Origin: a virus
Lineage: Duplodnaviria > Caudoviricetes
Direction: 5' to 3' (one strand)
DNA length: 64,000 bases
Virus record (IMG/VR): IMGVR_UViG_3300000203_000004
Location: 1 to 64,000 of that record
The notes beneath the pieces are model-generated. The model searched no databases, was not told the DNA's origin, and saw only the letters and a program-made list of their open reading frames with translations. Shown here in pieces: positions 4,563-63,411 of the stretch (its first letter is position 1; the number at the start of each line of letters is the position of its first letter). A program made the translations under genes and the position numbers.

Positions 4563-5108
4563 ATGAAACAACCTAAAATAACCGGCGAGTTCCTTAATGA
4601 CTTCTTTGATGCAGTCGATGAAACCAGAAAGAAAGAAAGTATGCTGAAAACAGTAAAAGGTAATCTGATTGATCTGGCTGAACAGGGCGAGTTCAACATC
4701 ATTGTTCAAGGCTGCAACTGCTTTGAGACAATGGGCAGCGGTCTGGCGCGAGAGATTAAAGCACGATATCCTGCCGCTTACGAAGCCGATATTAAGTATT
4801 CACACGCAGGCGACTACAATAAACTTGGTTGCTATTCGGTGATGCTCAGCAAGCGATTCAACATCATTAATTGTTATTCCCAATTTGGATTTGCCCGTGA
4901 TAGTGATGTATTTGAATACGATTCATTCAAACTAATCCTTCAAAAACTTGCTTATGCCTATCCAGGTGGAAAGTTTGGCTTCCCGATGATCGGATGCGGT
5001 CTGGCCGGTGGTGATAAGGATCGCATCGTCGGCATGTTGGAAGCGTTTGCCCGAATGATGGATAAGACTGCGGCAGGCGGCTCGGTTACACTTGTGGAAT
5101 TCGCTTGA
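4563..5108 (+). CDS. macrodomain protein (ADP-ribose processing); alternative start 4641
   Basis: KGNLI, QGCNC..MGSGLA, PMIGCGLAGG macro motifs. Confidence 0.85.
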   Translation: MKQPKITGEFLNDFFDAVDETRKKESMLKTVKGNLIDLAEQGEFNIIVQGCNCFETMGSGLAREIKARYPAAYEADIKYSHAGDYNKLGCYSVMLSKRFNIINCYSQFGFARDSDVFEYDSFKLILQKLAYAYPGGKFGFPMIGCGLAGGDKDRIVGMLEAFARMMDKTAAGGSVTLVEFA

Positions 5109-5162
5109 CAATAAATCAGTTTGGGTGTATAATAGACGCATCTAAACTCTCGGGGAACCGAA

Positions 5163-5705
5163 ATGAAATTGGCATACTTGGGTGCTGCAGGAATAGTCCT
5201 AGTCCTGGGCGTTCAACAATATCAACTGAATCAGATAACCGAAGCCGTTGCTGACATTCAAACCAATCTAAAATTCGTCACACAGTCTGACCGACCTCTG
5301 GCGTCATTCTCTGAAAAAGATGAGGCGTGTCTGGCCAGAAATGTCTATTACGAAGCTGGCAATCAGACCGAGAACGGCAAATATTCTGTGGCTCAGGTTA
5401 CCCTCAACCGATTGAAGTCGGGCCGATGGGGCAGAACAATATGCGAAGTGGTTTATTCCAAGGCGCAATTCAGTTGGACGCTAAAAAAGAAACTGCCGAA
5501 GCCTTCGGGTCAGGCATGGGATGATTCTCGTTGGATTGCCCATCGTGCCTTGCGCGGTGATCAAGTTCCCTCACTGAAAACGGCAATGTTCTACCACGCA
5601 GACTATGTTAAACCGGCTTGGCGTGACCCTGTTGCTAAAATACAACAGGTCGGGGCGCACATTTTCTACGCTCGGGCGAAGACCAAAGCCGAAACCAAAA
5701 GTTGA
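5163..5705 (+). CDS. SleB-like cell wall hydrolase (Hydrolase_2)
   Basis: N-terminal TM; CLARNVYYEA, VAQVTLNR, QFSW, FYHADYVKP, GAHIFY. Confidence 0.9.
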   Translation: MKLAYLGAAGIVLVLGVQQYQLNQITEAVADIQTNLKFVTQSDRPLASFSEKDEACLARNVYYEAGNQTENGKYSVAQVTLNRLKSGRWGRTICEVVYSKAQFSWTLKKKLPKPSGQAWDDSRWIAHRALRGDQVPSLKTAMFYHADYVKPAWRDPVAKIQQVGAHIFYARAKTKAETKS

Positions 5706-5760
5706 CAATAAATCGTTTTGGGTATATAATACTAACATCAACTCGCAAAACGGAACAAAA
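5703..5760 (+). repeat. repeated early promoter + leader cassette (TTGACAATAAATC...TATAATA...ATCAACTCGCAAAACGGAAC), copy 1
   Basis: Near-identical copy at 6000-6059 (+); related copies at 23218-23277, 24794-24853, 25318-25375 (-). Confidence 0.85.
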
Positions 5761-6003
5761 ATGATTGCTCAATCTTCTAAAATCATGCGTGAACTTGCTG
5801 GCAAGGGTGCTACTATGTTCAACGACAAACTTGTCAACGGTAGCCGCAGCTATAAGGTTTGGGGATGGACTTTGCGTGATTATGACAAAGCCTGGGCACG
5901 ACTGCTCCAAGCAGGCATCAAGTCGGAAGTTGTTTATGCCCGTGCGTACTACGACATTCGCGGTGCCCGGATGGTGCAAAACATCCGGTTGCATGTGGCT
6001 TGA
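5761..6003 (+). CDS. early hypothetical protein
   Basis: ATG directly after promoter cassette. Confidence 0.65.
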   Translation: MIAQSSKIMRELAGKGATMFNDKLVNGSRSYKVWGWTLRDYDKAWARLLQAGIKSEVVYARAYYDIRGARMVQNIRLHVA

Positions 6004-6059
6004 CAATAAATCAGTTTGGGTATATAATACTAACATCAACTCGCAAAACGGAACGAAAA

Positions 6060-21581: not shown

Positions 21582-21842
21582 CTAACTGATTCCTTTGAGA
21601 GTGAACTTGGAGAGAAGAGTTTTGGCTACTGAGCAGTCGAGGTTTTCATTGTCAATACTACGATTGATACATTCCTTTGCGGCTTGAACAAGAGCAGTTC
21701 GCTCCAGTTCGGCTGAGGCGTATGCCAGAAGTTCTGTGGCGTAGTCAACATCGTCCTGCGATACACGGGCGTACCATTCGCGCAGAACTTCTGGTGTTGC
21801 GGACATAAGGAATTCCAGATTCTTTTTGTCATGAGGATTCAT
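21582..21842 (-). CDS. hypothetical protein
   Basis: ORF in operon. Confidence 0.6.
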   Translation of the reverse strand: MNPHDKKNLEFLMSATPEVLREWYARVSQDDVDYATELLAYASAELERTALVQAAKECINRSIDNENLDCSVAKTLLSKFTLKGIS

Positions 21843-23217: not shown

Positions 23218-23266
23218 TTTATGTTCCGTTTTGCGAGTTGATAAGTGTATTATACACCCAAACGCA

Positions 23267-23599
23267 TTAATTGTCAACCTCAGCGTAGCCGAGTCGAGCA
23301 ATTCCTTCTTGGAATTTTGTCCGAAAAGTAGCTGAAAACTCAGCCGTGTCACCGTACATGGGCCAGCGCCCTGCACCGACTTTGTAAGCCAACAGATCCA
23401 TAAGCATTTCACGCTCAAGGGTGTCATGCGGGCCGAATTCTGTCAGGGTGCTGATACAGTCCTTATTGTCATTCATCAGATCAAGAAACTGATCCATTGT
23501 CAGCACCACGTTGGTACGATCAGAAAGTACGTCAATACATTCTTGAGAGAATACAGCAGTTAATCGTTTCATTATCGTCCTACTTGTTTGATGCGCCAA
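23267..23599 (-). CDS. hypothetical protein
   Basis: ORF in operon. Confidence 0.55.
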   Translation of the reverse strand: MAHQTSRTIMKRLTAVFSQECIDVLSDRTNVVLTMDQFLDLMNDNKDCISTLTEFGPHDTLEREMLMDLLAYKVGAGRWPMYGDTAEFSATFRTKFQEGIARLGYAEVDN

Positions 23600-24150
23600 A
23601 ACATGCGCCAGATTCTTGCTTGTGTCGTGCGGTGCAGTGATTGTGTTCCGACGAGCAATTTTCCATCCTCAAAGAAACAGAAAGGCTTCGGTCGCCGATA
23701 ATTCACCAGGAGCAAACGCTCGGAGATTCGCTGATAGGTTCCTGTCATTTCGGTACGCATCTGTAACTCGTTTGGTATTTCAGTTGAATGTCAATTGCCC
23801 GGTCAATCTCCGGATTCTTTGGGATCAGCCCTGCCGAGCCATACATCTTGGTCTCGTATATCGTGCGGATTGCCGCCTGACAAGATGCCTCGGAATTAAA
23901 TGTTCCGAGTGTCGTCGGATGCAACGCAGTGATAAAGATCAGAATATAAGGACTCATCCGAAGAACCTCGTAATCAACCAGGAGACACATACCAGAAACG
24001 CCGCACCACCGACTGGGTTCAGCGTGATCGTCGCCCTGCATTGTTGGTACGAAGTCAGCCCGAGAAACAACCAGAGAGTATGAAGTGTCCCTATTGCATA
24101 GAGTGTCACCCAAATTGTGGACAGCACTGTGAGGAATGTGTAAACCATGA

Positions 24151-24357
24151 TTACTTGGAAGTAGACGGCTTGAACAAGAAAGCACAGAGAACGGTCAGTC
24201 CCCAAGCTTGGAGCCAGGTGACCTCAGCGACCCCTGCGACCGCGCCGACCAAACAGCCGTTCCAAAGCAGAAACACAGGGTATGAGAGCAAAAAACTGAC
24301 GAACACCAAGAGTACAATGGCGCCAACAGCAAGAGTAAGAGCAGCGAGAAAGTTCAT
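24151..24357 (-). CDS. small membrane protein
   Basis: Two hydrophobic segments; TWLQAWGL. Confidence 0.65.
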   Translation of the reverse strand: MNFLAALTLAVGAIVLLVFVSFLLSYPVFLLWNGCLVGAVAGVAEVTWLQAWGLTVLCAFLFKPSTSK

Positions 24358-24379
24358 TTTGATTTCCTAAGTTGAGAGA

Positions 24380-24793
24380 TTACGCAACGACACCTGCAGT
24401 CACCATGCTGGTCGCTGCGTTCGAACCGATCTTGTAACGCTTGCCAGCAGAAGTCAGCACCACGAACGGGTAAGCACGGGCGCGACTATTGTAGCCGACA
24501 AAGCTAACCACACCGAGAGACTGCGAACGGTACTTGGCAGTCGCATCAAAAGATGCACCAAGCAAACGCTTGCCGGTTTTAGCAAGAGCCAAAGCTTTCA
24601 CATCGACCGGGGTAGTCACCGAAGTACCTGCAGCGCCGCGAACGACGCCAGACAGCGTACCGCGCATCGATTCAGCGTTGAAGCGAATCGTGCCCAGAGA
24701 AAAGTCGATACCGTGCTTTTTGGCGATGAGGGTGAAAGCGAGGGCGAGGTCAGCGCGAATTGCTGATACTTGGGTTTTTGTGAGTGCTGTCAT
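24380..24793 (-). CDS. early hypothetical protein
   Basis: Follows repeated promoter cassette. Confidence 0.7.
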   Translation of the reverse strand: MTALTKTQVSAIRADLALAFTLIAKKHGIDFSLGTIRFNAESMRGTLSGVVRGAAGTSVTTPVDVKALALAKTGKRLLGASFDATAKYRSQSLGVVSFVGYNSRARAYPFVVLTSAGKRYKIGSNAATSMVTAGVVA

Positions 24794-24855
24794 TTTCAGT
24801 TCCGTTTTGCGAGTTGATAAGTGTATTATATACCCAAAGTGATTTATTGTCAACC

Positions 24856-25053
24856 TTAGATGCCAAGCTGCATGCCAATTTGTTTAGCAGTTTCAGTGAC
24901 TTCAAAGGACTGACCACCGGACAACCAAATCTTACCGTCGATATAGGCAGCAAGCTGCATCGGGTTGACGAACAATTGTTCAGTGCCCGTTTTCTTGTAT
25001 CCTTCGGTGAACGGTGTGTAGCTTTCGCGGGTGATGTGAGTAAGCCTGATCAT
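24856..25053 (-). CDS. hypothetical protein
   Basis: SD AAGGAA. Confidence 0.55.
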   Translation of the reverse strand: MIRLTHITRESYTPFTEGYKKTGTEQLFVNPMQLAAYIDGKIWLSGGQSFEVTETAKQIGMQLGI

Positions 25054-25062
25054 TTTGATTCC

Positions 25063-25317
25063 TTAGGCGAATTCGTAAAACTTGACGCTCGGGTCAAGAG
25101 CAACCAATTCACGGGCAGCCTTGGTCAGCATCTTGTAACGAGCAGCGACCTGAGCGCGGGGACGTTCACCGTCGCAAGTCAGACATTCAGGAGACAGATC
25201 GGAGTCGAGCCAATCAGCGACTTTTTGACGATCCGAAGCGTAGCTAAGATCGACTGCCGGGGCGTTGAACATAGCATGAAAGCGATTTTTGTCAGCGACA
25301 TATTTCTGGAGAGACAT
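25063..25317 (-). CDS. early hypothetical protein
   Basis: LSPE.LTCDGE motif; follows promoter cassette. Confidence 0.7.
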   Translation of the reverse strand: MSLQKYVADKNRFHAMFNAPAVDLSYASDRQKVADWLDSDLSPECLTCDGERPRAQVAARYKMLTKAARELVALDPSVKFYEFA

Positions 25318-25371
25318 TTTAGTTCCGTTTTGCGAGTTGATAGTGTATTATATACCCAAAGCGATTATTTG

Positions 25372-25572
25372 TCAAATAAAATCGTATGCGAATTCGCTGC
25401 CACATGCGTTCATTTCAACGCGGTTTTTGTAGTCGGCGGAGAGCATTTGGAATACTTTGTCAGCATCTTCGGGGAGAGCCATGACAAACAGGGTACCGTA
25501 AGCAAAAGATGCAGCATTGTCGGCACCGAGAACCTTTGCGACCTTTTCCAGAACAACAGTTTCAAAACCCAT
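25372..25572 (-). CDS. early hypothetical protein
   Basis: Own TTGACA/TATAAT promoter. Confidence 0.6.
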   Translation of the reverse strand: MGFETVVLEKVAKVLGADNAASFAYGTLFVMALPEDADKVFQMLSADYKNRVEMNACGSEFAYDFI

Positions 25573-51153: not shown

Positions 51154-51182
51154 ATTATAGCAGAAGATTGATTAATTGTCAA
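51154..51182 (-). promoter_or_regulatory. sigma70 promoter inside tRNA array, followed by two boxA-like sites
   Basis: TTGACA-17-TATAAT; AGTTCTTTAA (~51107-51116) and AGTTCATTAA (~50955-50964). Confidence 0.65.
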
Positions 51183-51314
51183 GTTCCCTTCCTGCTTACT
51201 CACTGTACTTGCTCTCACTGAGCGATTTTCCAGTGCCTCTGCCGTTTTGTTCTCAACCTTCAATCAATCTAAGAGTCTATTATAGCAGAAAGTCCATTTA
51301 ATGTCAACTTTGTT

Positions 51315-57161: not shown

Positions 57162-57236
57162 TGGTACCTAGCGTTGGTTTCGATCCAACTACAGCTCGCT
57201 TATCGGGCGAGTACCTCCCCATTCGGTCTGCTAGGC
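57162..57236 (-). tRNA. tRNA-Ile(GAT)
   Basis: Loop CCGATAA. Confidence 0.82.
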
Positions 57237-57872
57237 ATTTGTTTGTTTTCTCCCTGGCCGCCATCCTTCTGGCACCAGCGAGTCCTTTCGGATCTTTTTA
57301 CTTTCTATCCCATTGGATATCCATTTAGTACCGTACTGACTATTTCCTTCCCCACGCTGATGGACTGCGCTTTTCTCTCCTATCGCAAGTTTGGTATTTT
57401 CAGAATGCAGTCGGCCGTCAAACGTCCCTTTAGGGAATTTCTCCATACGAGCGATAGCCCCTAAATGCTGTATTTTTCTCCAGCGATCAAGATGTTTCGC
57501 TATATTGTTATCATTTTTTGCAAACGTTTTCCACCCCGTCTGGTGTGTTTCACGCGACTTTCCGCCACGATTCAAACCAGTTTTATTTAAGTAGTCGAAC
57601 CCACCGAATCCGCCTCGTCGCAAATTATAAGTATCTGATCTTGCAAGGAATTCATCAGTGACGACCTCTTTTTCTCTGCGAAACATTGCCTCGGAATTAT
57701 CGAAGGTCTCTCTTATTGTCTTGGTGAAGTTTTCAAGGCCATTTTTCTGTATGGCTCGTTGAATAACTTTCCCGGACCCCATATAGCCGTCATCCATGTT
57801 TTTTGTTTTATGGACGCCGACATATATTTTGTCGTTGAGGTTGTTTTTGATTTCGTATAGATAGTAGAACAT
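57231..57872 (-). CDS. GIY-YIG (Seg-like) homing endonuclease
   Basis: YYLYEI.N..KIYVGVH...YMGSG; YNL..GG.GG; NSQYGTKWI. Confidence 0.88.
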   Translation of the reverse strand: MFYYLYEIKNNLNDKIYVGVHKTKNMDDGYMGSGKVIQRAIQKNGLENFTKTIRETFDNSEAMFRREKEVVTDEFLARSDTYNLRRGGFGGFDYLNKTGLNRGGKSRETHQTGWKTFAKNDNNIAKHLDRWRKIQHLGAIARMEKFPKGTFDGRLHSENTKLAIGEKSAVHQRGEGNSQYGTKWISNGIESKKIRKDSLVPEGWRPGRKQTNA

Positions 57873-58060: not shown

Positions 58061-58146
58061 TGGCACACCGGGAAGGACTTGAACCTCCATAGTCTTTCGA
58101 CCGTCACGTTCAAAGCGTGATGCGGCTACCATTTCGCCACCGATGT
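58061..58146 (-). tRNA. tRNA with Gln(TTG) anticodon and long V-arm
   Basis: Loop CTTTGAA; V-arm GGTC-GAAA-GACT; G73. Confidence 0.82.
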
Positions 58147-58612
58147 ATATTTGCTATTCTGAAACACTCTGCCTTCTCGCTATATGACCGCTGTTACGAG
58201 CTATCAATCGGACTCGCACCGAATCAGAATGTTTTAGAATAGTGCGTGTTGCCACGCACTATGATAGGGTTGATACCCTACCCAGTGATTTTAATCTCTG
58301 CGTTATCGCCGCAGATTTCATCCTACTGTCCGCCCGTTTGCTCCATGTTTTAAGTGCAGAGCGAGGACCTCGTTTCCTCATATTCACACTATTACTCCGC
58401 AAGAACCGATTCTGGTATCCTCTTTCTTGCTTCTAAATGCTCTAAAGCACGTTCTAACTTGTTTAGGATCAATCGCTTGACCTGTTCACTTGTCAGTTTA
58501 TGCTCTGAGCACCATTTTTGTTTTTCTGTCAAATTCTTTTCCTTCATTTATTATAACATATTTTCGATTTTTCGTCTATCGATTTTTTGCTATGTTGTTT
58601 TTTGTTCACATA

Positions 58613-58650
58613 GCAAAAAACCCTGAGACTTTTGCAAGTTCTCAGGGTTT
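58613..58650 (-). terminator. intrinsic terminator (attenuator) upstream of tRNA array
   Basis: AAACCCTGAGAACTT-GCAA-AAGTCTCAGGG-TTTTTT. Confidence 0.85.
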
Positions 58651-58674
58651 GACGATGTTTTAACTATGTGCTAG

Positions 58675-58839
58675 TTAATCATCCCACCCCTCAAACTGAT
58701 CACCTTCTTTACCATTACCGCGCCCAATATTTCTTGAGGCTGCTGGCGCTGTCACTGGATACATACCTGTAAACGCCTCTGCCGATAAGGGCCAGAGCGA
58801 TGTATGTTGTATTAGCTGGTGACAAGCAAAGTTTTTCAT
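58675..58839 (-). CDS. putative leader peptide (54 aa, all 20 amino acids)
   Basis: MKNFACHQLIQHTSLWPLSAEAFTGMYPVTAPAASRNIGRGNGKEGDQFEGWDD*; stop 24 nt before terminator. Confidence 0.6.
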   Translation of the reverse strand: MKNFACHQLIQHTSLWPLSAEAFTGMYPVTAPAASRNIGRGNGKEGDQFEGWDD

Positions 58840-58887
58840 TGTAATCTATTTAGTCCTTGTTTCGTTAAAGTATCAATTTATGTGTCT

Positions 58888-58916
58888 ATTATAGCAGTTT
58901 TTCGATTAAATGTCAA
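58888..58916 (-). promoter_or_regulatory. sigma70 promoter upstream of leader/attenuator
   Basis: TTGACA-17-TATAAT; second TTGACT-17-TACAAT at ~58969-58997; CTAAATA at ~58847-58853. Confidence 0.75.
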
Positions 58917-59025
58917 CCTTTTGTGAATCTATTTACCCGAAAGCTACTTTTCTCACTTTCTAAACGCTATTGTAGCACAGAGTCGAATTAAAGTCAACCG
59001 CAGCCTATGGTCTGGTGTCCGAAAG

Positions 59026-59922
59026 CTACTTTTGGTTAAGTTTTCGTATCTGCTCGACTAACGGATACACACCATCCGCGATGGGGTTCGGACCGAATTC
59101 AACAGTCTCCATGTACACCTCTGTGGCATACTTCTTTGTTCGCACATCATCTAAATAGTCATGCAGTAATCTATTCCAATATTGGACAATGCCCGAAGAA
59201 GCACCTTCTGGCAGCACTACAAGGTATCCTTCCCCGGATTGCCACGACTTGTATTTTTTGTTAAGGCTCGGAACGTTGAAGGCAGTGTCATGTTGTGAGA
59301 TGATCGCCAGAAGTTTGAGCTTTCCTGAAGATATGAATTGTATAGCAATGCTAATTGGCACCACAGCAACATCCACGTGCCCGGACACAACATCCATCAT
59401 CGCCGGCGCTCCGCCTTTGTACCCGATGACTAATGGTTCCGGTTGATCAATTCGTCGTGTATTAATAAATAGTTGGCTGAGAAGTACCTGTTGGTTAGGG
59501 GATCCGTACCCAAATGAGAGGCGCGTGGATGAGACTTTAAGCTCATTTTCCAGATCCTCATAAGTTTGTAATTTATTGTTTGGCCCGGCGACAAACGCCA
59601 TGATCGAAGCATGTGTCATAGACACATAAGTAAACTGATAGCTAGGGTTTGCTGCTCGGTGCGTGGCAACTGTGGCGAGAGTGCCAAACACCACAGTAGT
59701 CTCACGGTTGCCGGCGACAGCGGCATTCATACCTATCAACCCGTTAGCGCCACCTTTGTATTGCGGAGTAAGTTCGGTGCCATGCTCGGATGCATATTTT
59801 TGAAAATGTCTGAAACTTATATCAGCACCTCCTCCGGGAGTGAACGGTATAATTACATCAAAATGTGCAGCCGATGCTAGAGTAGAAATAGTTATAAGGA
59901 GAAGAAGTATTAATTTTTTCAT
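59026..59922 (-). CDS. TctC/Bug-family substrate-binding protein
   Basis: Signal peptide; PFTPGGGAD; YKGGAPAM.DV..GHVD. Confidence 0.85.
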   Translation of the reverse strand: MKKLILLLLITISTLASAAHFDVIIPFTPGGGADISFRHFQKYASEHGTELTPQYKGGANGLIGMNAAVAGNRETTVVFGTLATVATHRAANPSYQFTYVSMTHASIMAFVAGPNNKLQTYEDLENELKVSSTRLSFGYGSPNQQVLLSQLFINTRRIDQPEPLVIGYKGGAPAMMDVVSGHVDVAVVPISIAIQFISSGKLKLLAIISQHDTAFNVPSLNKKYKSWQSGEGYLVVLPEGASSGIVQYWNRLLHDYLDDVRTKKYATEVYMETVEFGPNPIADGVYPLVEQIRKLNQK

Positions 59923-61849: not shown

Positions 61850-61880
61850 ACGAGTATTATAGCAGAAAGTCCATTTAATG

Positions 61881-62201
61881 TCAAACCCTGAATGATTCTC
61901 CACACCCGCAACGATCACGCTCATTTGGATTCCGAAACTCAAACCCCTCATTGAGTCCCTGACGAACATAGTCAACTTCAAGTCCGTCGACATATACCAT
62001 ACTCTTAGGATCTACAAATAGCTTACAGCCGTTGCAGTCGTAGCATTGATCATCTGCGTTTGGAGTATCGACGTACTCCAGAACATATGCCAGACCAGAG
62101 CATCCTGTAGTTTTTACGCCGATGCGAAGACCCTCGCCGTGACCTCGCTTGGCAAGTGTCTGCGTTACTTTACGGGCTGCTTGAACAGTGATCGTGATCA
62201 T
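61881..62201 (-). CDS. iscA: Fe-S cluster assembly protein IscA
   Basis: GVKTTGCSGLAY; GLNEGF.F.NPN..DRCGCGESF. Confidence 0.93.
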   Translation of the reverse strand: MITITVQAARKVTQTLAKRGHGEGLRIGVKTTGCSGLAYVLEYVDTPNADDQCYDCNGCKLFVDPKSMVYVDGLEVDYVRQGLNEGFEFRNPNERDRCGCGESFRV

Positions 62202-62398: not shown

Positions 62399-62774
62399 GA
62401 TTCTTTTTATAGTCTGCGATTGCTGCTTTGATAGCATCCTCAGCAAGAATACTACAGTGTAGCTTAACTGGAGGCAGTGCGAGTTCTTCAGCGATTTCTC
62501 GGTTGGTGATAAGGACGGCCTCTTCCATTGTCTTACCCTTGATCCATTCAGTGACCAGTGAAGATGATGCGATTGCTGATCCGCATCCGTATGTCTAGAA
62601 CTTTGCGTCAGTGATGATTTGGGTCAGCGGATCGATTTTGAGTTGTATCCGCATCACATCTCCACACGCCGGGGCACCTACCATTCCTGTTGCGATATCC
62701 GGATCATCTTTGGGAAATGATCCTACATTGCGCGGATTTTCATAATGGTCAATGACGCGGGCTGAATAACTCAT
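62391..62774 (-). CDS. iscU: Fe-S scaffold IscU with in-frame TAG at 62595-62597
   Basis: DHYENPRNVG...GAPACGDVM...DAKF*TYGCGSAIASSS...LPPVKLHCS.LAEDAI. Confidence 0.9.
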
Positions 62775-63411
62775 ATAATACCTCTAATGTTATAGAACAT
62801 TTAATACCTTTTTTTACATTACTGATGGCTGGAATAAATTCCAAATTGTGAATACTTCCTATTACCTCAGGGGGTACTTTTTGGTTGAATCCTTCAGTGA
62901 TACTATATTTATGATCCAGATGAAATCCGTTTTTACTACGTTTATCATTGTTAGGTAAGCTTGTTAGGTTATTCTTGTTTGTCCAATAATAAACTTTACG
63001 TCTATATTTTTTGAACTCTATATATTCAGGGTCGTCAGGTTTCCAGGATATTCCACGATCAATTTTAGTCTGGATCGCCTTGGCAGTTGATTCCGGTTTC
63101 ACTATTTTACCAGTCAAGGCACGTGATCGTTTTTCATTAGAAGTTGGGGAGTGTTTTTTACCTTTCCAGTAATCTCTAACTAAGTTAGATATACTATTGG
63201 TATTCACTTGCGTCATGCCAAACATCGGGTTGTGTTCGCCTTGTTTTGCATTGGACGCTTTTTTACGCCAGGATGCTGACCTGTTGTTGGCCATCCAACG
63301 CCTTGAACATATTGCACCACAGAATTGTCGAGTAAGTGCTTTTTTATTTTCTCGAATAGAGAATGATATTCCGCAGTGTTTACATATTTTATCTATCATT
63401 AGGACTTTCAT
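62749..63411 (-). CDS. HNH-like homing endonuclease with NUMOD3
   Basis: NPMFG; FHLDHKYSI..GF...I.NLE.I...N..K. Confidence 0.78.
   Translation of the reverse strand: MKVLMIDKICKHCGISFSIRENKKALTRQFCGAICSRRWMANNRSASWRKKASNAKQGEHNPMFGMTQVNTNSISNLVRDYWKGKKHSPTSNEKRSRALTGKIVKPESTAKAIQTKIDRGISWKPDDPEYIEFKKYRRKVYYWTNKNNLTSLPNNDKRSKNGFHLDHKYSITEGFNQKVPPEVIGSIHNLEFIPAISNVKKGIKCSITLEVLYELFSPRH

Follow-up and report, generated by a model that had tools for sequence, protein, structure and literature searches.

Amino-acid biosynthetic operons such as trpL, hisL, leuL, pheL, thrL and ilvL of Escherichia coli and Salmonella are governed by attenuators in which a promoter and a short translated open reading frame (ORF) precede two mutually exclusive hairpins, the antiterminator and the terminator. 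The position of the stop codon is such that the antiterminator 5′ strand is masked by a ribosome terminating there and, as in trp, the terminator is thermodynamically favoured and the antiterminator is the first to form. Large transfer RNA (tRNA) arrays of phages have been linked to escape from tRNA-cleaving defences and to translation late in infection, and their regulation is, to our knowledge, essentially unknown. Here we analyse the head of such an array in positions 1-64,000 (the window) of the 103-kb record IMGVR_UViG_3300000203_000004, from an uncultured phage of the Caudoviricetes, and describe a cassette of promoters, a 54-codon leader ORF and a terminator that shares these properties with the amino-acid operons. 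Comparative sequence analysis demonstrates its anatomy, its statistical excess over chance, its presence in relatives, the translation of its ORF and its linkage to the array. We give an even chance to the proposal that the cassette is a ribosome-mediated, leader-ORF transcription attenuator set between two strong early promoters and the tRNA array. An interpretation made earlier from the letters of the window (the sequence-only reading), which saw here a trp/his-type attenuator inducing the array when host tRNA is attacked, is partly supported.

Attenuators that respond to translation at large have been described in bacteria. The Bacillus subtilis vmlR and bmrCD leaders and the mef/msr leaders are ribosome-stalling attenuators that sense general translation inhibition (PMC9226507, PMC4335068). 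As proposed for the phage, their output is set by slowed or stalled leader ribosomes rather than by one amino acid, and read-through relieves the problem; they differ in that antibiotic-bound ribosomes control ABC-F or efflux genes of bacteria, whereas the phage cassette is proposed to respond to decoding speed and to deliver tRNAs. The trp attenuator of S. meliloti, with its trans-acting small RNA rnTrpL and peptide peTrpL (PMC6614838, PMC7298713), is a precedent for a conserved leader peptide, in that both the peptide and the terminated RNA are functional; it bears no sequence relation to the phage leader, for which a function in trans is conjecture. The nearest published regulation of a tRNA array that we found is that of the Anabaena PCC 7120 trn operon, a long plasmid-borne array induced by translational stress and controlled by the repressor TrcR (PMC8421152, PMC10272220). 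There, too, an accessory tRNA array rises when translation is impaired; in contrast to the phage cassette, control lies with TrcR, no leader, attenuator or terminator is mentioned (PMC8421152) and the setting is bacterial. Phage tRNAs have been found to counter tRNA-targeting defences (PMC11555353), which provides a rationale for raising tRNA supply on demand; that study deals with the tRNAs and not with how they are regulated, and describes no attenuator. A full-text literature search returned no account of phage tRNA genes controlled by a leader-ORF attenuator.

The record occurs in public sequencing runs of freshwater and lake metagenomes, and its phage is probably a jumbo phage, because 103 kb was judged just 29% complete. 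ARAGORN predicts 44 tRNA genes in the window, on the minus strand throughout, from 58146 down to 45336; Rfam confirmed the majority of these and added two more. The cassette lies immediately upstream of the first gene of this array. Three metagenomic relatives with DNA, L006, L007 and L008, could be aligned to it, and four-locus comparisons below are of these and the window; L006 (44 kb) is one contig with L009, L010 and L011 and was counted once. In transcription order, with promoters found by a scan for the sigma-70 class, the features are:

58969-58997, minus strand: promoter P1, TTGACT-17-TACAAT (10/12, TG-extended -10), with both hexamers kept in L006, L007 and L008.
58888-58916, minus strand: promoter P2, TTGACA-17-TATAAT (12/12, TG-extended -10), nearly invariant in the four loci.
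58840-58881, minus strand: AU-rich 5′ untranslated region (UTR) with the conserved block GGACTAAATAGA, defined by the four-locus alignment.
58675-58839, minus strand: 54-codon leader ORF with stop codon TAA at 58677-58675, defined by its reading frame and the homologs P0001-P0009.
58637-58697, minus strand: antiterminator hairpin with helices A-D, the minimum-free-energy (MFE) structure of the last 96 nucleotides (nt), -24.8 kcal/mol.
58613-58650, minus strand: intrinsic terminator with a 13-bp stem carrying one bulge, a 4-nt loop and U6, -18.5 kcal/mol.
58550-58578, minus strand: promoter P3, TAGACG-17-TATAAT (10/12, TG-extended -10), kept in 4/4 loci.
58061-58146, minus strand: tRNA-Gln(UUG), gene 1/44 of the array (ARAGORN); L006 and L007 have the same tRNA in first place after the cassette.

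The anatomy bears out the sequence-only reading in each stated feature. It had promoters leading into the ORF, and the scan places P1 (58997-58969) and P2 (58916-58888) there, the start predicted for P2, near 58881, leaving a 5′ UTR of about 42 nt. It also had the ORF stopping 24 nt before a strong terminator: the stop codon ends 24 nt ahead of the stem (23-25 nt across the four loci), and the hairpin is the strongest minus-strand site among 35 terminator-like sites of the 103-kb record. The pairing it described between the last codons and the terminator 5′ arm holds and proves larger, helices B (GGGGU/ACCCU) and C (GAUGAU/AUCGUC) being joined by an outer helix A (AGUUU/GAACU) and an apical helix D (UAACUA/UAGUUA). 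The antiterminator 5′ strand consists of codons 48-54 plus the stop, with the stop codon lying within the hairpin in all four loci; the 3′ strand includes 10 of the 13 nt of the terminator 5′ arm, plus spacer. In folds of the growing chain, the antiterminator is the MFE structure until the terminator 3′ arm has been made, after which the terminator together with a truncated hairpin is slightly better. All four full leaders behave in this way, the terminator being favoured at the end with P 0.98-0.997, and in the MFE folds the 5′ strand freed when the terminator has formed pairs with ORF sequence.

The partnership between leader and terminator is statistically unusual. When the 60 nt ahead of an unchanged terminator arm were dinucleotide-shuffled (n = 1000), the shuffles averaged -13.7 +/- 2.8 kcal/mol and 0/1000 were as stable as the native -24.8 kcal/mol; the energy gained by adding the terminator arm, -16.4, was matched by 0.1% of shuffles and 0.13% of random genomic 60-mers. 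As a natural control we used the 35 terminator-like sites, among which the leader stood at z = -3.5, one weak intragenic site at -3.7 and the rest between -1.1 and +1.7. The other site with a strong upstream partner, at 21784-21830 on the plus strand, has a weak hairpin (-10.9 kcal/mol) that by eye lies inside coding sequence, and was set aside.

The same arrangement recurs in the relatives. P1, P2, the ORF, the terminator stem, P3 and a second small ORF have the same layout in L006, L007 and L008; L006 and L007 continue through a structured spacer to tRNA-Gln(UUG), L006 runs on into a 30-tRNA array, and the L008 contig stops short of the spacer and tRNA region. Upstream of P1 the window and L007 have a TctC-like gene, and L006 and L008 have two other contexts. 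Because linkage to the array is kept while the upstream genes differ, the cassette in these contigs moves together with the array, not with its upstream neighbour. Searches of the phage GenBank collection by blastn with the locus and by tblastn with a neighbouring gene gave no match, and a search of the GTDB genome contigs gave no relative. The TctC-like neighbour was tried as a synteny anchor and found two loci, whose downstream genes are unrelated. A match in contig L012 to the peptide GRGFEGWDD was rejected as chance, as it falls within a larger unrelated ORF, which resembles ThyX by eye only, and has no tRNAs nearby.

Both hairpins persist across these loci. The antiterminator reaches -22.8 to -24.8 kcal/mol in the four loci (-22.8 to -24.6 kcal/mol in L006, L007 and L008), pairs 10-11 of the 13 arm nt and is equalled by at most 0.6% of shuffles. 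Its apical helix differs in sequence between two sublineages yet is kept as a helix, L007 carries one compensatory change from A-U to G-C, and in the outer helix a U-to-C change turns G.U into G-C. An intrinsic terminator lies between the leader ORF and the array genes: its stem is 100% paired in the four loci, with 12 of 13 pairs invariant and a compensatory change in the loop-closing pair, and in the window, L006 and L007 the hairpin, followed by U5-U6, reaches -17.4 to -19.1 kcal/mol. The terminator loop and flanks vary while the stem stays, a pattern expected of a strand that needs two pairing partners, one of them coding. The trp/his-type geometry of the sequence-only reading is thus real, statistically unusual and present in 4/4 loci with DNA. 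Of what that reading proposed to look for in related phages, the layout and an ORF with all 20 amino acids were found; the alternative helices, which share a strand in all four loci, are kept, with insufficient covariation.

A switch worked by something other than the ribosome, with a protein or an uncharged tRNA stabilizing the antiterminator in the manner of a T-box, would be compatible with the poor ribosome-binding site described below, and the GGGUGG in the antiterminator 5′ strand superficially resembles a T-box sequence. We think this very improbable: the internal-loop bases vary between relatives (GG, UG, GAG), the reading frame is clearly maintained, and 58200-59100 matched neither the T-box nor any other Rfam family at E values up to 10. 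A T-box riboswitch as such was rejected on that absence of a match and on the unconserved internal loop.

What we infer is how ribosome position acts, in which direction the cassette regulates and what physiological trigger it answers to; the placement of the 5′ strand and of the stop codon fits a choice of structure by the ribosome. Transcripts from P1 and P2 carry the translated 54-codon ORF. A ribosome that keeps pace with the polymerase to the last codons or the stop would unwind or cover the antiterminator 5′ strand; with that strand masked, the terminator would form and the transcript would end at about 58613. A ribosome lagging or stalled in roughly codons 1-42 would leave the hairpin in place, and the polymerase would read into the second ORF, the spacer RNAs and the tRNA genes, on top of basal transcription from P3. 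Slow elongation of any cause would then raise phage tRNA output, and a shortage of most tRNA species could be sensed, because the leader ORF contains all 20 amino acids.

Several patterns indicate that the leader ORF is translated. All 5 indels within it in the four-way DNA alignment are multiples of 3, and those in the UTR and past the stop are mostly of 1 nt; a single 3-nt indel falls in the 5′ UTR. Contigs from other lakes aligned to the locus, which provide partial variant tables only, show indels that add up to 3 or 9 within the ORF of each contig and, immediately beyond it, indels of 1 nt. Counted by codon position, the variable sites number 9/7/16 of 48, third-position variation equals the rate in the non-coding flanks (31-33%), and the pairwise ratio of non-synonymous to synonymous substitution rates (dN/dS) is 0.17-0.45. 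On the in-frame indels, the codon-position pattern and a dN/dS below 1, we regard the ORF as translated and its peptide as under purifying selection. The sequence-only reading had staked itself on an ORF that is translated and kept in position, and the in-frame indels, the dN/dS and the retained place at the head of the array agree with it there; its forecast of poor amino-acid conservation failed, dN/dS being about 0.2.

The blocks MKNF.CH, LWP and FEGWDD are retained down to 37% identity and, with the purifying selection, imply that the ORF is more than a codon sampler. A search of 5.8 billion proteins gave the peptide 5 clusters of homologs, 74-89% identical, and a profile search added 4 at 37-72%, for a total of 9 in libraries of 5.8 + 1.8 billion proteins. 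No family was found in Pfam or PHROGs, the best score against the ESM Atlas (0.76) is at chance level, and AlphaFold2 returned a predicted local distance difference test (pLDDT) score of 55 with no secondary structure predicted, so that the peptide has neither a known small-protein family nor a confident fold. An in-frame upstream ATG adds 9 codons in L007 (2596-2627), P0001 and P0009, where the extended N terminus reads M[KQ]PGLNR[FYL]. and the block GGACTAAATAGA is conserved in the four loci whatever the frame, from which we take its constraint to act at the nucleotide level.

Such strong conservation of the peptide means either that it probably does something more, by arrest in the exit tunnel or by acting in trans like peTrpL (PMC7298713), or that a plain gene is the better explanation. 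A dual-function attenuator, in which the switch works as proposed and the terminated RNA of about 270 nt, the peptide or both act in trans, would reconcile the switch anatomy with the conservation and has its precedent in rnTrpL and peTrpL of the S. meliloti trp attenuator (PMC6614838, PMC7298713). It is conjectural, and we hold it to be improbable.

The composition of the ORF was an element of the sequence-only reading, and a recount agrees with it: the 54 codons cover 20 amino acids with 34 distinct codons, and codons 1-18 are all different. Against a null of 54-residue windows from the phage's own long ORFs, 3.4% contain all 20 amino acids, 2.5% have 18 distinct first codons and 28% have at least 34 distinct codons; these figures are real but modest, were chosen post hoc and, alone, are weak. 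All 12/12 homologs (48-55 aa, 37-89% identity) contain all 20 amino acids; in P0001 and P0002 the sole Val is gone from position 29 and a Val stands at position 34 instead, and in P0007 Cys6 is absent and a Cys lies inside an insertion near position 32. Under a conservative null, with identical positions fixed and changed ones redrawn from BLOSUM62, the chances of keeping all 20 in the informative lineages are 0.4, 0.098, 0.59 and 0.39, jointly about 0.009; with substitutions at random sites and eight lineages taken as independent, the joint value is about 4e-5. The true probability lies between 0.009 and 4e-5, which is suggestive, not decisive, because most proteins conserve rare residues. 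Rare-codon enrichment was not significant (0.71 on a measure like the codon adaptation index, 9th percentile versus phage genes), and a comparison of the leader codons with the tRNAs downstream, in which the ORF needs 27/38 phage anticodon types, is uninformative, as the array covers nearly all codons. One extension of the attenuator proposal is that selection keeps at least one codon per amino acid, so that loss or cleavage of almost any tRNA would stall the leading ribosome, keep the antiterminator and let transcription from P1/P2 reach the tRNA array; we consider this unlikely, and likewise that, as part of it, the cassette serves as a phage-encoded, demand-driven counter-defence, for example against a host anticodon nuclease. 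Induction by tRNA attack is something that we purely infer.

That the complementarity and the full amino-acid set are a coincidence, picked out afterwards and inherited by close relatives, is an explanation that the material partly invites: the p-values of the four DNA loci lack independence, since these loci are homologous, and the composition statistics are about 3% each and post hoc. We nonetheless find it scarcely credible, given p of about 0.001 even with 35 terminators allowed for, a hairpin retained where the apical sequence diverged, and the full set kept at 37-56% identity through relocation of Cys and Val.

A number of observations weigh against attenuation by the leader ribosome, beginning with the ORF. 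The regulatory codon cluster for a sensed amino acid that marks the known class is missing, as each amino acid occurs 1-6 times and codon runs are absent. The only Asp codons are numbers 47, 53 and 54, and a ribosome stalled on them would mask the antiterminator strand by its own presence; a shortage of Asp would be poorly sensed, and the claim of the sequence-only reading that stalling on 'any' tRNA permits read-through was overstated. A well-placed Shine-Dalgarno sequence was not found for the leader ORF: an AAGGA lies 13-14 nt before its ATG (ACGGA or CAGGA in relatives), in contrast to the AAGGA or AGGAG typically 4-7 nt ahead of the start in the phage's other genes, so that the earlier remark that no clear Shine-Dalgarno precedes the ATG stands. 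Ribosome loading may be poor, and read-through then the default. With a dN/dS of about 0.2 the peptide shows the conservation of a genuine small protein, and a plain gene accounts for this with no need of a switch.

The RNA and the promoters add to these points. The site was chosen from the whole window, which puts a look-elsewhere factor of about 35 on the p-values. In a covariation analysis of four sequences, too thin a set, 11/16 outer pairs never vary and shuffles equal the observed scores. The outer helices are confounded, with 5′ strands encoding the conserved F-E-G and 3′ strands formed by the terminator arm, and their invariance does not discriminate between readings because of these coding and terminator constraints. 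The U-tract is replaced in L008 (UUUACC), and termination is probably weak there because of its loss. No conserved, dedicated 1:2 pause or anti-antiterminator hairpin was found upstream in the MFE folds. P3 lies between terminator and array, which has, in 4/4 loci, its own conserved promoter; the downstream genes are neither promoterless nor dependent on read-through alone. The sequence-only reading had noted this promoter, TAGACG-17-TATAAT, past the terminator, and it is found at 58578-58550, conserved in four loci; induction of the array solely by read-through is contradicted by it.

The main rival draws on many of these points. In it P1 and P2 drive an ordinary small early gene for a 54-aa, probably disordered protein, for example a host-takeover factor; the terminator insulates it from the P3-transcribed array, and the hairpin at the stop codon is incidental or stabilizes the mRNA 3′ end. 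Purifying selection (dN/dS 0.17-0.45), N- and C-terminal blocks kept down to 37% identity, P3 kept in four loci, alternative helices unproven by covariation, a terminator that wins at equilibrium and the many perfect early promoters before small ORFs in this phage are all in keeping with such a gene. It leaves unexplained the complementarity of the last 8 codons to the terminator 5′ arm, far beyond chance and present in four loci, when the other good terminators of the genome lack a partner of this kind. The missing well-placed Shine-Dalgarno sequence would be odd for high expression, the protein has no predicted fold (pLDDT 55) and no family, and two stronger promoters would serve an ORF of 54 codons while just a 10/12 promoter remained for the first 31 tRNA genes. 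On this balance we regard the ordinary gene as possible but doubtful.

The promoters of the array itself bear on the last of these points. No perfect promoter occurs in the first 7 kb (31 tRNAs) of the array except upstream of the 58650-58613 terminator. P2 is 80% identical over 49 nt to an array-internal promoter at 51307; this promoter and the one at 51182 were inspected, and neither is followed by an ORF and terminator. As a separate observation, about 17 perfect TTGACA-17-TATAAT promoters fall into repeated promoter and leader cassettes, exemplified by TATAAT-ACTAACATCAACTCGCAAAA at 5702, 6000, 23277, 24853 and 25375; cassette regions lie at 5105-6028 (plus strand) and at 23249-25375, 51279-51307 and 61856-61884 (minus strand).

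Read-through transcripts would first enter two further conserved elements:

58392-58547, minus strand: second small ORF, 46-51 aa, predicted helical, with a likely TTG start at 58532 and an AAGGA 8 nt upstream; conserved in L006, L007 and L008.
58147-58391, minus strand: structured non-coding spacer from the second ORF to the first tRNA, corresponding to L006 6405-6648 and L007 3050-3295.

The upstream ATG of the second ORF in the window (58547) is absent from the relatives, in which the TTG after the AAGGA is the likely start; a search of Pfam gave just a sub-threshold Rap1a-like match (19 bits versus a cut-off of 27.7). The spacer has a stretch of about 50 nt, GAGGAAACGAGGTCCTCGC...GGGCGGA, without a single difference among three loci, a conservation exceeding that of the ORFs. 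Two hairpins carry 4-5 compensatory changes, 11 of 59 predicted pairs have such changes, and a long AU-rich closing helix, UAUUCUAAAACAU/GUGUUUUAGAAUA, surrounds a variable cargo; no Rfam family matched the spacer. Right after the terminator stem, and including its U-tract, U6-GCUAUGU...ACAUAGC-A6 (58581-58622, minus strand) can fold into another AU-flanked hairpin with as many as 13 bp, present in the window, L006 and L007 and absent from L008, which could matter for read-through transcripts or for processing.

Other features of the neighbourhood are recorded as side observations. The gene upstream of P1 (59026-59922, minus strand) encodes a TctC/Bug-family periplasmic solute-binding protein (Pfam PF03401, E 5e-11) with a signal-peptide-like N terminus, an unusual phage auxiliary gene with 40-48% identical homologs in two other viral contigs (L003 and L004). 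In L004, a viral but unrelated contig, a permuted transfer-messenger RNA with the tag ANDSTYALAA (4570-4981; ARAGORN) lies directly upstream of the TctC-like gene. Within the array, a GIY-YIG (SegE-like) homing-endonuclease ORF sits between tRNA-Trp and tRNA-Arg, with an ORF carrying a NUMOD3 motif nearby (57231-57870 and 62749-63411, both minus strand); both matches are weak and under the Pfam cut-offs. The arrangement is reminiscent of the T4 tRNA cluster, with which SegB is associated.

Set beside the amino-acid operons, the cassette differs in its longer leader (54 codons versus 14-32), which has no single-amino-acid run and includes every amino acid, in its conserved peptide, in the apparent lack of a 1:2 pause or anti-antiterminator hairpin, in its proposed control of tRNAs rather than biosynthetic enzymes, in the conserved promoter after its terminator and in being phage-encoded. 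We therefore propose that it is a variant of the trp/his class, not a member, because it lacks regulatory codon runs and the genes it would regulate have their own promoter; in its working it would resemble both that class and the vmlR and mef/msr leaders. Were the ordinary gene correct, the ORF would be one more conserved, unfoldable small early protein. If the attenuator proposal is true, read-through is predicted to rise when any of about 19 aminoacyl-tRNAs becomes limiting, tRNA output would be coupled to decoding speed through a compact, portable sensor of general elongation, and the logic of amino-acid-operon attenuation would extend to the supply of tRNA.

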